Positions 25,865 to 59,671 of a stretch of 64,000 nt of DNA are shown in pieces (position 1 is the first letter of the stretch; each line of letters opens with the position of its first letter). The DNA comes from Escherichia coli. Lineage in GTDB: Bacteria > Pseudomonadota > Gammaproteobacteria > Enterobacterales > Enterobacteriaceae. Below the pieces are notes generated by a model, which was not told the DNA's origin, did no database searches, and saw only the letters and a list, made by a program, of their open reading frames with translations. The stretch is taken from NCBI RefSeq assembly GCF_024502345.1, contig NZ_JALDNN010000001.1; one strand, 5' to 3'. Both the position numbers and the translations under genes were made by a program.

Positions 25865-26518
25865 CGCTTTGTCGATCAGATCTCCGGCGGGCAGCAGCAG
25901 CGCGTGGCGCTGGCCCGCGCGCTGATCCTCAAGCCGAAAGTGCTGCTGTTTGATGAGCCGTTGAGTAACCTCGACGCCAACCTGCGTCGCAGCATGCGCG
26001 ACAAGATCCGCGAGTTGCAAAAGCAGTTTGATATCACCTCGCTGTACGTCACCCACGATCAGAGCGAAGCCTTTGCGGTTTCTGATACTGTGCTGGTGAT
26101 GAACAAGGGACACATCATGCAGATCGGCTCACCGCAGGATCTTTACCGCCAGCCCGCCTCCCGCTTTATGGCGAGCTTTATGGGCGATGCCAACCTGTTC
26201 CCGGCAACCTTCAGCGACGGATACGTTGATATCTACGGCTATCATCTGCCGCGCCCGCTGCACTTTGGTACACAGGGTGAAGGGATGGTCGGTGTGCGCC
26301 CGGAAGCGATCACGCTCAGCGATCGCGGCGAAGAGAGCCAGCGCTGCGTGATCCGCCATGTCGCCTATATGGGGCCGCAGTATGAAGTGACGGTGGAATG
26401 GCACGGGCAGGAGATATTATTGCAGGTCAACGCTACGCGTCTGCAACCGGACGTCGGCGAGCAGTATTATCTTGAAATCCATCCGTACGGCATGTTTGTT
26501 CTGGCGGATGCGGCATAA
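25865..26518 (+). pseudogene. afuC: ABC transporter ATP-binding protein fragment (afuC/fbpC-like), N-terminus with Walker A missing
   Basis: Reading frame opens directly at IS1 right end: RFVDQISGGQQQRVALARALILKPKVLLFDEPLSNLD (ABC signature + Walker B) but no upstream Walker A. Confidence 0.7.
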
Positions 26519-26532
26519 CGTTTTGTGGTTTT

Positions 26533-26599
26533 GTAGGCCGGATAAGGCGCTTGTGCCGCCATCCGGCAATGCCTGATGCGCTGCGCTTATCAGGCCTAC
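26533..26599. repeat. REP element pair between afuC fragment and mmuM
   Basis: gtaggccggataaggcgcttgtgccgccatccggcaat gcctgatgcgctgcgcttatcaggcctac. Confidence 0.6.
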
Positions 26600-26626
26600 A
26601 ATGAACGATGTAGACCCGATAAACCC

Positions 26627-27559
26627 TCAGCTTCGCGCTTTTAACGCGGCGATATCCGCAGGCGTGGTGCGACAGCACCCGCCAATCAACCGTGCGCCAG
26701 CGGCCTGCCACTGCGGCAGATAATCCGCCAGCTGCGCGCAATGTTCACCGTGATGATGCCAGGTTTTGCTCACGGCATCGTAATGCTCGCCCGAGTTCGG
26801 ATACACCACCAGCGGCAGCACCGTTAAACCGTGTAAATGCTGCAACGCAGCGGTGGTGTTTTCCAGCGCAATACAGTTAATGCCTAGCGCCACCACCTGC
26901 GGATAACCCGCCAGCAACGCAACCACGTCACGCAGCGGCGTACCGTCGCTCAGGTGTTCGCTGTCGCGCAGGGTAAATGAGAACCACGCCCGCGCACGCG
27001 GATATGCGGTCAACAGCTCGGCCAACGCCTCAATCTCGGAAAAATTCGGCAGGGTTTCGCAGGCCAGCAGATCGGCCCCGGCATCCAGCAAGGCTTCCAC
27101 GCGCGGGCGATGAAACGCCTGAAATGCCTCAACGCTACAATGATAATCGCCACGGTATTCAGAGCCATCCGCCAGATACGCGCCGTAAGGCCCGACGGAT
27201 CCCGCCACCAGAAGCGTTCCCGCCTGCGGGTTCTCTGCCAGATACGCTTCACGGGCTTTACGCGCCAGCTCCACGCTTTTGCCAATCAGCGCTTTCGACT
27301 GCGCTTCATCCAGACCTCGCGCGGCGAAGCCCGCCGGCGTCGCCTGATAGCTGGCAGTGATCGCGCATTGCGCCCCCGCCCGGTAGTAATCAAGATGCAC
27401 TTCGCGGATAAGCTCCGGGTTTTCTACCAGCACTTTGGCTGACCACAGGCTGTCGGCTAAGTTACACCCTCGCGCTTCCAGCTCCGTCGCCATCGCGCCA
27501 TCCAGCAGCAGGATATCCTGTTTATCAAGAAGAGCGCGTAACGGATTATTCTGCGACAT
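26627..27559 (-). CDS. mmuM: homocysteine S-methyltransferase MmuM
   Basis: ORF 26627..27703; start placed at [34 protein letters not shown] (310 aa); C-terminal GGCCRTTP zinc site. Confidence 0.9.
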
Positions 27560-28949
27560 GTTCTGGCTCCTGTTTTGCGTTTCGGGGTTGAGTAAGGAAA
27601 TAAGCACCATAGCACAACGCAACAAACGGTAACCCGCACCACAACGCAATTCTCTGCGCTGGATCGAATGCCAGCCCAACACAGGCCACCAGGCACAGCA
27701 CAAAACCTAATACTGGCACCAGCGGATACCACGGCGCGCGATAATGTAATTCACTCAATGCCTTACCTTGTTGCAGATGACGGCGACGAAAAACAAAATG
27801 CGAGGCGCAGATACTCAGCCACACCGCTACCACCGCAAACCCGGAGATTGCCGACAGCGCAACAAATACCGTGTCCGGGGCCACCACGCTGGAAAACAGC
27901 GCCAGCACACCACCGAGCATACTGACCGACAGCGCCGTCAGTGGCACGCCGTTTTTCGTTACTCGCGCAAAACAGGCCGGTAGCGTACGTTCATTCGACA
28001 ACGACCACAGCATGCGCCCGGAGGCATATAACCCGGAGTTCGCTGCAGAAAGAATAGCCGTCAGGATCACGAAGTTAAAAATATCAGCGGCGTACGGGAT
28101 CCCTACTTTCTCAAATACCAGCACAAACGGGCTTTTCTCCACGCCCGCCTGCTGCATCGGGATCAGCGCTGCCAGCACAAACACGGTGCCGATAAAGAAA
28201 ATAATCAGTCGCGCGATGGTAGTACGAATCGCTACCGGGATAACTTTGCGCGGGTTTTCCGTTTCACCGGCGGCAATGCCGATAAGCTCGGTACCCGAAA
28301 AAGCAAAGTTCACTGCCACCATAGTCATCAAAATCGGTAAGCCACCGTGCGGGAACCAGCCTTCTGCCGTGATATTACTCAGCCCCGGCGCGGGCGAGCC
28401 ATCCTGCATCGGAATAAAGCCGAAAATCGCCGCCCCACCGAGGATGATAAAGGCGATGATAGTGACCACTTTGACCAGCGAGAACCAGAACTCCCCTTCG
28501 GCAAAAAAGCGCGTGGAGATAACATTCAGACCAAAAATAATCGCGCAGAACACCACGCACCAGACCCATACCGGCACCTGTGGAAACCAGTACTGCATAC
28601 AGAATCCAGCGGCGGTAAAGCTCGAACCCAGCGCCACGGTCCAGGTCAGCCAGTAAAGCCAGGCCACGGTATACCCGGTAGCCGGACCAAGATAGCGCGC
28701 GGCATAAACGTGAAACGCTCCGGTCTCCGGCATCGCGACCGACAGCTCGCCCAGACACTGCATAACCAGCCAGACCACCAGCGCACCAATCAGATAGGCC
28801 AGCAGCGTTCCCGCCGCTCCAGTGGTGGAAATGATGTACCCGGTATTGAAGAATAATCCTGTGCCAATCACGCCGCCCAAGGAAAGCATAATCAGGTGAC
28901 GCGTTTTCATTGTGCGCTTCAGTGGCGCATTTTGTTGTGTTGTTTGCAT
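27546..28949 (-). CDS. mmuP: S-methylmethionine permease MmuP (APC family)
   Basis: ORF 27546..28973; start placed at [37 protein letters not shown]. Confidence 0.9.
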
Positions 28950-29223
28950 ATAACCTTCTAAACGCATGGACATCTAAACATCCAAAGAAGGTTTGTTATA
29001 CCGCGTTTGTTAACAGAATGCAAAGTCAACCCTGCACCAGACGCAGATGCCCGCGCCGGGCGCTTAATAGCGGGTGGGGATTAATAATCAGATACAAAAA
29101 GGGCCGCCAGCTCATAACGCCTCCGTTGCCATGTTTTATCTAAACTTTGGCACCACAGTTGACTGACGGCGTTAACCCGGAAGTGGGAATCAAATCTCCC
29201 CACTCCCACAACCGGATGAATGC

Positions 29224-58266: not shown

Positions 58267-58743
58267 ATGAAACAGCTTTCCTTTTTACCCGGCGAGATGA
58301 CGCCACAGGACCGGCGTCTCATTCAGCGGGCGCTCAGGGCTCTGGACCGCCACCTGCATGAGCCCGGCGTAGCCTTCACCTCTACCCACGCCGTACGTGA
58401 ATGGCTGCGACTGCATATGGCCGCGCTTGAGCGGGAAGAGTTCCGGGTGTTGTATCTGGACAACCAGAATCAGTTGATTGCCCATGAAACGCTCTTCACC
58501 GGCACGATTAACCGCACCGAGGTGCATCCCCGGGAGGTGGTCAAACGTGCTCTGCACTTCAACGCGGCGGCGGTGATACTCGCGCATAACCATCCTTCCG
58601 GCGAGACGACACCTAGCCAGGCCGACAAAACCCTCACGCAGCGACTGGTTCAGGTGCTTCAGCTGGTGGATATCCGTGTCCTTGACCATCTGATTGTCGG
58701 TGGCAGGCAAATCTATTCGTTCGCAGAACACGGTCTGCTTTGA
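58267..58743 (+). CDS. RadC-like JAB/MPN-domain protein (YkfG/YeeS/YfjY family)
   Basis: 158-aa ORF with JAMM motif ...AAAVILAHNHPSGETTPSQADKTLTQRL... Confidence 0.8.
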   Translation: MKQLSFLPGEMTPQDRRLIQRALRALDRHLHEPGVAFTSTHAVREWLRLHMAALEREEFRVLYLDNQNQLIAHETLFTGTINRTEVHPREVVKRALHFNAAAVILAHNHPSGETTPSQADKTLTQRLVQVLQLVDIRVLDHLIVGGRQIYSFAEHGLL

Positions 58744-58751
58744 GGTATTAC

Positions 58752-58973
58752 ATGAAAATTATCAGTAAACGCAGGGCAATGACGATATACCGCCAGCATC
58801 CTGAGTCCCGAATCTTTCGCTACTGCACCGGCAAATACCAGTGGCACGGTAGCGTCTGTCATTACACCGGCAGGGACGTTCCGGATATCGCCGGAGTCCT
58901 CGCGGTATACGCCGAACGCCGCCAGGACCGCAATGGGCCCTATACCTGCCTGATGAGCATCACCCTGAACTGA
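58752..58973 (+). CDS. DUF987-family protein (YkfH/YeeT/YpjJ-like)
   Basis: ORF 58740..58973; start at MKIISKRRAMTIYRQHPESRIFRYCTGKYQWHGSVCHYTGRDVPDIAGVLAVYAERRQDRNGPYTCLMSITLN. Confidence 0.65.
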   Translation: MKIISKRRAMTIYRQHPESRIFRYCTGKYQWHGSVCHYTGRDVPDIAGVLAVYAERRQDRNGPYTCLMSITLN

Positions 58974-58991
58974 CAATAGTGGAGAACTGTA

Positions 58992-59309
58992 ATGAGCAAC
59001 CCTACCAGGGGCCTGCAGCGGGAGATTACACTGCGCCTGGGAGCCCGTCTGGTGCAGGAAGGCAACCGACTGCATTATCTGGCTGACCGGGCCAGCATCA
59101 CCGGCAAGTTCAGTGACATCGAATGCCGGAAGCTGGATGAAACATTCCCGCACTTTATCCGCCAGATGGAATCGATGCTGACCACCGGTGAACTCAGCCC
59201 CCACCATGCCCACTGCGTTACCCTGTACCACAACGATTTAACCTGCGAAGCCGACACCCTTGGCAGTTGCGGCTACGTATACATCGCCATTTACCCCACT
59301 CAGCGTTAA
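58992..59309 (+). CDS. type IV antitoxin, CbeA/YeeU/YafW family
   Basis: 105-aa [108 protein letters not shown]. Confidence 0.8.
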
Positions 59310-59329
59310 TTACCTACACGAGAGCAAAC

Positions 59330-59671
59330 ATGAAAACTTTACCTGCAACAACTCAGCGGGCGGTGAAGCCCTGCCTGTCACCCGTGGCTGTCTGGCAAAT
59401 GTTACTGACACGTCTGCTGGAACAGCACTATGGTCTGACAATAAACGACACGCCATTCTGCAATGAGGCTGTGATTAAGGAACACATCGATGCCGGTATC
59501 ACCCTAGCCGATGCCGTGAATTTTCTGGTAGAAAAATACGAGCTGGTTCGTATCGACAGGAAGGGATTTAGCTGGCAGGAACAATCTCCTTATCTCCGGG
59601 CTGCAGACATTCTGCGAGCGCGGCAGGCAACTGGCTTGTTGCGGCAAAGCCGTAACAACGTAGTACGATGA
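59330..59671 (+). CDS. type IV toxin, CbtA/YeeV/YkfI family (cytoskeleton-binding)
   Basis: ORF 59267..59671; start at [80 protein letters not shown]... Confidence 0.8.

Follow-up and report, generated by a model that had tools for sequence, protein, structure and literature searches.

A locus of heat resistance as cargo of a probable CP4-6-family island remnant at the thrW site of an Escherichia coli chromosome

A 64-kb stretch of Escherichia coli chromosome (contig NZ_JALDNN010000001.1, hereafter the window) carries, at positions 25865-59671, an accessory block that is probably a decayed and mosaic, integrase-less remnant of a CP4-6-family island at the thrW tRNA site, with the heat-resistance locus (LHR, also called the transmissible stress-tolerance locus, tLST) as its cargo. 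The block is made of four joined pieces: a 10.65-kb fragment of Citrobacter chromosome, bounded on its left by the insertion sequence (IS) IS1 and on its right by the left end of IS30; this IS30, nested in an IS3-family element; the LHR with IS debris; and a CP4-6 module followed by the scar of an attachment (att) site. An earlier reading of the letters alone, the original prediction, had proposed that the block follows the order of the CP4-6 prophage remnant of E. coli K-12, and that a GC-rich stress island had been brought into this remnant by IS-mediated replacement. Our analysis confirms part of the observation and supports part of the interpretation.

The window was aligned to positions 259-283 kb of K-12 MG1655, the comparison that had been suggested as a check. 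Three blocks of CP4-6 homology were found:

25864-29125, plus/minus: K-12 278410->275149, 99.94% identity; truncated afuC', mmuM and mmuP
36508-38163, plus/plus: K-12 270533-272190, 99.4% identity; IS30 nested in IS911
56779-60068, plus/minus: K-12 266220->262930, 99.8% identity; from the 3' 111 bp of yafY to ykfI, and the thrW 3' end

These blocks occur in the K-12 order, as proposed, with at least 99.4% identity. However, they sum to only 8.2 of the 33.8 kb, the other 25.6 kb being without counterpart in K-12 CP4-6, and since IS30/IS911 aligns plus/plus while both arms align plus/minus, the IS30/IS911 block is inverted relative to the arms. Collinearity is therefore partial, limited to three blocks, and does not extend to the whole of CP4-6. 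The window and K-12 CP4-6 share the thrW location, the module from ykfB to ykfI (99.8%), the mmuP-mmuM-afuC cargo (99.94%) and the site at which IS30 is nested in IS911; in addition, the IS1|afuB' junction of K-12 is found in relatives of the window of the N9 type. By contrast, the window lacks perR, ykfA, yafZ, IS5A, ykfC and eyeA, as well as the yagB-to-intF side, in whose place IS1 is found, whereas it carries a second mhp operon (mhp2) and the LHR that K-12 does not have. In the relatives of the window, the genes from the GTPase to yafY are a different allele from that of K-12 (85-97%), and the K-12 version of CP4-6 was seen in K-12-type genomes only.

The right arm ties the block to thrW. 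It comprises the conserved module and the att scar:

56779..59671, plus: CP4-6 conserved module, 99.8% to K-12 266220->263328 (gene coordinates from the K-12 annotation, in agreement with the open reading frames, ORFs)
56779-56889, plus: yafY'
56912-57379, plus: ykfB
57456-57695, plus: ykfF
57793-58251, plus: yafX, antirestriction
58267-58743, plus: ykfG, RadC/JAB
58752-58973, plus: ykfH, DUF987
58992-59309, plus: yafW, antitoxin
59330-59671, plus: ykfI, toxin
60053..60068, minus: thrW 3'-end remnant (att scar), TGGTGC-GATAATAGGA; 16/17 nt of the thrW 3' end, with a 1-nt deletion

Only the distal half of the module, from yafY' to ykfI, is kept; the proximal half (GTPase, DUF932, yfjR, ypjK) is deleted here and present in relatives. 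The scar was read by comparison with the thrW genes of K-12 and of strain Z226-5, the closest relative; K-12 homology ends inside thrW, and the scar lies between the CP4-6-like remnant and a second island. Its presence contradicts the statement that no att-like tRNA 3' end occurs in this DNA. In E. coli C, the same module directly adjoins an intact thrW-proA. As in K-12, the scar is part of the CP4-6 module rather than of the LHR. It came to light only where the end of the K-12 homology was read, the tRNA scan of the window with ARAGORN having detected no complete tRNA. The expectation that the LHR has no integrase of its own was borne out: 25.8-60 kb is free of integrase ORFs, and neither an integrase nor a pair of att sites, a second att included, flanks the LHR within the window.

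The predicted GC-rich island, with fragments of IS256, IS66 and IS5 around it, is real; it lies at about 40.9-55.95 kb, and it is an intact LHR/tLST of the variant with full-length ftsH:

40936..55949, plus: LHR/tLST (from the ORF list, with RefSeq names on the 99.8-99.9% identical copy of strain N9)

All ORFs are open, and gene set and order are conserved as in LHR/tLST: orf1 with a helix-turn-helix (HTH), sHSP20 (small heat shock protein), clpK, a small orf, full-length ftsH, sHSP20-GI, yfdX1, yfdX2, hdeD-GI, orf11, trx-GI, kefB-GI, psiE-GI, htpX (M48) and a degP-like S1C protease gene; the same names are found on Z226-5. The GC content is 0.58-0.68 over 41-56 kb and 0.46-0.58 in the flanks. 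The island shares 98.5-99.4% identity with copies on Klebsiella, Raoultella, Enterobacter and Citrobacter plasmids, the homology starting at 40113 or 40792 and ending at 56547-56743, so that the IS66 fragments and orf0 on the left and the IS5-family fragment on the right travel with the LHR on those plasmids. In gene set and order, in GC content (about 61%) and in identity to annotated copies (98.5-99.9%), it shows no essential difference from known LHR/tLST; the AW1.7-type tLST1 and the copy on Citrobacter freundii plasmid p6_A lack ftsH, as opposed to the window copy. The LHR presumably works as the system known for tolerance of heat, chlorine and oxidants, with the ClpK disaggregase, sHSPs, FtsH, YfdX, HdeD, Trx, KefB, HtpX and DegP as its presumed components. 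The product of orf1 (40882-41217) matched an excisionase-family HTH model (E=5.8e-14) and the MADS1 anti-phage HTH model (66.7 bits, under the cut-off of 80); it is a small DNA-binding protein and does not constitute evidence of an excision system.

The LHR/tLST itself is already well described (PMC4563881, PMC5383660, PMC8290217, PMC8407380). In strain FAM21845, a 19.3-kb chromosomal LHR was reported with three transposase genes and orf0 at its 5' side and one transposase gene at its 3' side (Marti et al. 2017, PMC5514686), a layout that fits 36.5-56.7 kb of the window. LHR authors noted that complete genomes were too few for a systematic analysis of the flanks, and in the LHR literature that we searched there is no mention of thrW, CP4-6, mmuP or mhp. 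The thrW-island context, the Citrobacter fragment and the shared cargo slot therefore appear to be undescribed, if unsurprising.

The left arm of the block is not confined to the K-12-like part. Between mmuP and IS30, an interval that the original prediction had passed over, the window carries mhp2 while K-12 has IS5A-ykfC-eyeA:

25865-26518, plus: afuC', 3' 654 bp only (from K-12 homology)
26627-27559: mmuM (left arm, 25865..29125, listed as minus)
27546-28949: mmuP and its upstream region, to the end of the left arm at 29125 (same arm, listed as minus)
29126..36513, minus: mhp2, Citrobacter-type (RefSeq annotation of the near-identical, 99.9%, N9 copy)
29224-30435, minus: mhpT
30505-31518, minus: mhpE
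31515-32465, minus: mhpF
32462-33271, minus: mhpD
33281-34147, minus: mhpC
34176-35129, minus: mhpB
35131-36513, minus: mhpA', without its 5' end

The whole of 25864-36513 is one collinear piece of chromosome of the C. freundii complex. It aligns as a single 10.66-kb stretch to the C. braakii and C. youngae chromosomes (92.1%) and with 98.2-98.6% identity to C. portucalensis A60, a value that also holds for the left arm 25865-29125 against the C. portucalensis chromosome. MhpT of mhp2 is 99% identical to that of C. portucalensis, 95-98% to those of other C. freundii-complex species and 89-90% to those of Escherichia. The native Citrobacter order is mhpR-mhpABCDFE-mhpT-mmuP-mmuM-afuC-afuB-afuA, then uhpC/uhpB-like genes; the mmuP|mhpT boundary is thus native synteny, which rules it out as a rearrangement junction. 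That mhp2 might be a translocated native operon was likewise ruled out, as it is only 82.6% identical to the native mhp copy at window 1-4805. In E. coli, the Citrobacter fragment is always bounded by IS30 within mhpA.

These data bear on K-12 as well. Its segment 275149-279161 (mmuP-mmuM-afuC-afuB') is 98.6-98.9% identical to C. portucalensis, indicating that mmuPM-afuCB' of K-12 is also Citrobacter-derived, and the K-12 match of the left arm stops exactly at the IS5A boundary, from which it follows that the mhp part was lost from K-12 at this IS. What the K-12 annotation has as 'prophage' genes, mmuP, mmuM, afuC and afuB', is therefore captured Citrobacter chromosome, the neighbouring mhp2 having been lost at IS5A. 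A study of 2011 found mmuPM only in K-12 strains, as part of CP4-6, and did not trace its origin (PMC3228920). On an IncF plasmid of E. coli that carries NDM, pMS6192A-NDM (NZ_CP054941.1, 5677-10374), we observed a similar module, IS1-afuC'-mmuM-mmuP-IS5, with 99.7% identity; it differs from the window in that afuC is truncated at another point and that the segment ends at an IS5, in the position of K-12 IS5A, with neither mhp2 nor LHR. Some 330 plasmid places in the E. coli collection match mmuP, indicating that the Citrobacter-derived mmuPM module circulates on plasmids too.

Between the Citrobacter fragment and the LHR lie IS elements in a nested series:

36515..37736, plus: IS30 (transposase 36578-37729); left end abuts mhpA', right end in IS911 at the K-12 nesting site
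37737..38650, plus: IS3-family element (IS911/ISEc52), middle and 3' part, right end intact
38651..39900 (end approximate), minus: IS256-family element without its last ~107 bp (NCBIfam transpos_IS256, E=1.6e-121)
40056-40428, minus: IS66-family fragments, conserved left flank of the LHR
40443-40706, plus: orf0, conserved left flank of the LHR

Citrobacter mhpA homology stops at 36513 and the left end of IS30 (TGTAGATTCAATTGG...) begins at 36515/6. On the other side, IS30 enters IS911 at the same site as in K-12 (insI/insN nesting), the junction being 2 bp (CG) shorter, and the 5' 335 bp of IS911 that flank IS30 in K-12 are missing from the window. The right end of the IS3-family element abuts an internal point of IS256, at about 38650/38651; IS256 is intact on p6_A. 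The IS3-family element of the window and of N9 has no group II intron. In 730V1, 1218KP, TC24, NCTC9040 and other LHR-positive strains, this element carries a complete group II intron (ltrA), at the position of the truncated ykfC/eyeA intron of K-12 (K-12 272190-273992; 730V1 locus 28940-32115).

The right side of the LHR is of a different nature:

56174..56743, minus: IS5-family transposase fragment (3' part), internally truncated at 56743 (NCBIfam transpos_IS5_4, E=3.5e-64, profile 113-285)
56744..56781, no strand assigned: brxR-like remnant of 38 bp, ending at the point of a 4,387-bp deletion (3-bp overlap, 56779-56781)

The IS5-family element, full length in K. pneumoniae plasmid CP041936, is here truncated internally and fused to a truncated brxR-like gene. 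Hence the LHR is joined through true IS ends on its left, and through a non-IS deletion junction on its right. After the LHR, N9, E. coli C, HH107 and Z226-5 carry, in this order, IS5', brxR', the GTPase gene (ykfA-like), DUF932 (yafZ-like), yfjR, ypjK, yafY, ykfB to ykfI, and thrW; other LHR-positive genomes listed also keep ykfA-, yafZ- and yafY-like genes to the right of the LHR, as judged by span. Relative to N9 (locus 12604->16992), the window has lost 4,387 bp, with 3 bp of microhomology at the junction. In a survey of 5,426 complete E. coli genomes, a 301-bp probe over the deletion junction was covered to at least 80% in none (0/5,426). The loss of brxR'-ykfA-yafZ-yfjR-ypjK and of the 5' part of yafY is thus a deletion private to this strain, and it is this deletion that makes the LHR appear to replace the ykfA-yafZ-yafY genes. 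The proposal that the LHR fills the interval occupied in K-12 by perR-yafZ-ykfK/L-yafY is accordingly true of this sequence, but not of its relatives, which keep GTPase-DUF932-yfjR-ypjK-yafY next to the LHR; among the genes of this interval, perR alone is without a counterpart in E. coli C, N9, HH107 and Z226-5.

A complete island of about 41 kb, of CP4 type and carrying the LHR, is found on plasmid p6_A of C. freundii strain 62 (NZ_CP048383.1, ~146.6-188.1 kb). Its order is integrase-Fic-AlpA-YfjI-Gp2-type I restriction-modification (RM)-ISKpn26-IS256-IS66'-orf0-LHR-IS5'-brxR'-GTPase...antitoxin-toxin, with the LHR about 20 kb from the integrase, as island cargo. Window and plasmid share a contiguous IS256-IS66'-orf0-LHR-IS5'-brxR' (99.4-100% from IS256 to brxR'), and on p6_A this is followed, as in the CP4-6 module, by GTPase-DUF932-WYL-YpjK-YafY-YkfB-DUF905-antirestriction-RadC-DUF987-antitoxin-toxin. 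As opposed to the window, p6_A has an intact IS256, the integrase-proximal half (integrase, Fic, AlpA, YfjI, Gp2, type I RM) and other alleles of the module, and its island ends by a tRNA-Ile2-like fragment rather than thrW. In sliding comparisons, the identity of N9 and p6_A is 99.5-100% between the LHR end and a point just short of the GTPase start codon, past which it becomes a mosaic of 85-97%; for N9 and K-12, it is 85-97% over the genes from the GTPase to yafY and 99.5-100% between ykfB and thrW. In different hosts, the LHR cargo is thus tied to different module alleles, with a breakpoint at the module start, a signature of homologous recombination between related islands. Taken together, these sequence patterns point to carriage of the LHR as cargo and recombination between CP4-type islands, rather than to de novo IS-mediated replacement in E. 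coli. Two ideas about p6_A and the module were discarded: the p6_A integrase is not IntF-like (27% identity), and the module is not 'inverted' relative to thrW, because in K-12 and p6_A the toxin end is also next to the tRNA. On p6_A, the 3' half of the tRNA-Ile2-like gene lies just past the toxin end, on the opposite strand, and both island ends carry a tandem motif, TTACCTGACCCnTTACCTGACCC, possibly integrase arm sites (loci 18300-18620 and 35540-35740).

From the observed anatomy, junctions, origins and comparative distribution of the pieces, we infer the order of events and the recombination route. The LHR would have no mobility of its own here and would be carried as cargo in a variable slot just upstream of the CP4-type GTPase gene. 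Most likely, it would have come to this locus when related CP4-type islands underwent homologous recombination, crossing over in the conserved module, or when such an island itself arrived. Rearrangements mediated by IS30, IS3 and IS1 would then have eliminated the integrase-proximal half and joined the LHR to the Citrobacter fragment. In this strain, the 4,387-bp microhomology deletion would have followed, removing brxR'-ykfA-yafZ-yfjR-ypjK and the 5' part of yafY, and a second island would have integrated at thrW, displacing the remnant from the tRNA. The whole block would then spread among E. coli lineages by homologous recombination of chromosomal DNA. More speculatively, an IS30-mediated inversion with its target in mhpA, followed by a deletion between two CP4 modules in direct orientation, could explain how perR was lost, how IS30/IS911 came to be inverted, and how the IS30|mhpA' junction and the chimeric module arose.

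The explanation first put forward was that a K-12-like CP4-6 remnant stood at thrW and that the LHR and its IS debris then replaced perR-ykfA-yafZ-ykfK/L-yafY by IS events. We consider it unlikely, though several features speak for it: K-12 matches both arms at 99.8-99.94% and has the same IS30-in-IS911 nesting site, IS ends meet truncated genes at the left junctions, and the LHR is without integrase, att pair or direct repeats. Indeed, a k-mer comparison of 38.6-41.0 kb with 55.9-56.9 kb, the repeat search that had been proposed, returned no direct or inverted repeats at the LHR borders beyond chance, the sole common 12-mer lying in the IS256 and IS5 bodies (0.14 expected by chance). Yet E. 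coli C, N9, HH107 and Z226-5 keep ykfA-, yafZ-, yfjR-, ypjK- and yafY-like genes beside the same LHR, these genes are 85-97% identical to K-12 and hence not the K-12 allele, and what the window has lost went with its private microhomology deletion. Moreover, the right junction joins IS5' to brxR' at internal points of both, with no IS end, and is common to the island on the Citrobacter plasmid, and perR occurs in K-12-type genomes only. What stands of the original interpretation is therefore the setting, a CP4-6-family island at thrW with IS-end junctions on the left of the LHR, and what falls is the replacement and an IS origin of the right junction. Far less probable still is a self-mobile LHR, moved as a composite transposon by its flanking IS elements or as an integrative element by a recombinase of its own. 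The excisionase-family and MerR-type HTH models matched by orf1, the IS elements on both sides and the boundaries shared by plasmid copies (40113/40792 and 56547-56743) would fit such mobility; but the flanking IS elements are truncated and of different families (IS256/IS66 to the left of the LHR, IS5 to its right), a target-site duplication is lacking, the one shared 12-mer being within IS bodies, 25.8-60 kb holds no integrase ORF or complete tRNA, and the only att-like sequence (60053-60068) is the thrW end of the CP4-6 module. It is also improbable, if less so, that the loss of ykfA-yafZ and a collapsed Ag43 in the second island are assembly artefacts. Three deletions are unique to the window among the complete genomes surveyed or relative to Z226-5, two of them are within or close to the repetitive Ag43, and paralogous CP4 modules (81-87%) stand a few kb apart in inverted orientation; against this, the 4,387-bp junction lies in unique sequence and shows a clean microhomology of 3 bp, the flanks are otherwise 99.8-99.9% collinear with relatives, and the divergence of the paralogous modules is too great for them simply to have collapsed.

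Several observations weigh against carriage of the LHR by a recombining CP4-6-family island. True IS ends form the left junctions, so that IS activity had a part in shaping the locus, as originally proposed, and the inversion of IS30/IS911 relative to K-12 is explained by the multi-step model only. No ancestral or intermediate configuration was found: the missing mhpA 5'/mhpR flank of the Citrobacter fragment occurs in no complete E. coli genome, and a perR|IS911 junction was not found outside K-12, all 319 full-length matches looking K-12-type. With its unrelated integrase and tRNA-Ile2-like end, the p6_A island is not the one at E. coli thrW; its integrase-proximal arm was covered to at least 80% in no E. 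coli record and was never linked to the LHR, and identity alone does not show which way the transfer between p6_A and E. coli went. Finally, assembly errors are in principle a possible source of the three deletions specific to the window.

The distribution of the block fits its spread within E. coli. In the survey, at least 80% of the distal half of the LHR was present in 124 of 5,426 genomes (~2.3%, compared with about 2% in the literature), mhp2 in 106, and the left arm with the start of the LHR (25865-45000, at least 80% covered) in at least 77. Carriers include E. coli C, NCTC strains, O19:H7 and O125ac isolates, and isolates from clinical, food and water sources. The left edge of the block and the core beside it are as follows:

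1-24.7 kb: native mhpF-A, mhpR, lacI-ZYA, cynXST-R, codAB, prpEDCB
25097..25864, plus: IS1 between prpR' (first 46 codons) and truncated afuC', at the left edge of the block in this strain

The native mhp-lac-cyn-cod-prp core (1-25096) has a counterpart of at least 99% identity in only 3/5,426 genomes. Window and N9 are 97.7% identical over the core (589 mismatches in 25.6 kb), and 99.81-99.94% over the accessory block (53 mismatches in 39.2 kb), indicating that the common ancestor of the block is much more recent than that of the neighbouring core; core and block thus have discordant histories on the two sides of IS1. Such closeness of the block fits a spread by chromosomal recombination, and LHR1 was transferred to MG1655 in a chromosomal segment of about 700 kb (Boll et al. 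2017, PMC5383660). These data suggest chromosomal recombination, rather than transposition, as the main way in which the LHR passes from lineage to lineage. A broader scenario, which we put forward only tentatively, is that K-12 CP4-6 and the LHR-bearing thrW island are two descendants of one ancestor that had captured at least ~11 kb of Citrobacter DNA (afuB...mhpA). With at least 77-106 diverse complete genomes, the laboratory strain E. coli C included, the LHR-bearing form would then be the widespread natural form and the LHR-less CP4-6 of K-12 an idiosyncratic derivative, and most chromosomal LHR copies of E. coli would go back to a single acquisition at thrW, spread by homologous recombination and not by mobility of the LHR.

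Most chromosomal E. coli copies of the LHR appear to share the CP4-6-type locus at thrW and its flanks (at least 77 genomes for the left arm and 106 for mhp2, of 124 LHR-positive), which makes for a simple locus-specific marker, of use in tracking LHR/tLST in food safety, wastewater and hospital hygiene. The view of how the LHR works is unchanged by this comparative-genomic detail, which adds no new mechanism. When 100,044 species-representative genomes were searched for exact copies of the IS5'|brxR' junction, there were 0 matches, and no chromosomal carrier outside E. coli came to light in this way. In strain LP5-1 (NZ_CP101866.1, 3525857-3527368), we observed an apparent deletion derivative with only the htpX/degP end of the LHR, adjoining an annotated FAD-dependent monooxygenase gene that may be mhpA'.

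At the left edge, the inverted repeat of IS1 begins at 25097, the PrpR N-terminus reads into the element, and IS1 is 99.7% identical to IS1B of K-12. N9, K-12 and Z226-5 have IS1|afuB' with afuC intact, unlike the window. Compared with N9, the IS1 of the window removes prpR-yahO...yahA-bet-ykgEFGH, an IS1, afuB' and the 5' end of afuC, and the sequence beside this IS1 is different in every strain compared (K-12, N9, Z226-5, HH107 and the window). HH107 has the same right side of the block, and its left side is IS1-truncated next to pao/yagP'; the integrase found there is only 25% identical to IntF, over 153 aa.

Beyond the att scar, outside the CP4-6-like block, the window ends in the second thrW island:

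60069..64000, minus: distal end of the second thrW island, in opposite orientation, 99.9-100% to Z226-5
60250-60618: cbtA-like toxin
60639-60956: yeeU-like antitoxin, with DUF987 listed next
61206-61688: radC
61697-62587: antirestriction/Ag43 fusion remnant (Ag43 fragment, E=4e-95), with a WYL fragment listed next
63233-63979: DUF932

This island, also of CP4 type, stands in tandem with the CP4-6-like remnant at thrW, and its toxin end is 81-87% identical to the first module. Relative to Z226-5, deletions of 656 bp and 2,235 bp around Ag43 have left a 0.7-kb fragment. In Z226-5, the second island runs for about 28 kb to its own integrase, followed by an intact thrW and proA; besides this integrase, it carries SIR2 and other large defence-like genes (locus 14000-42200).

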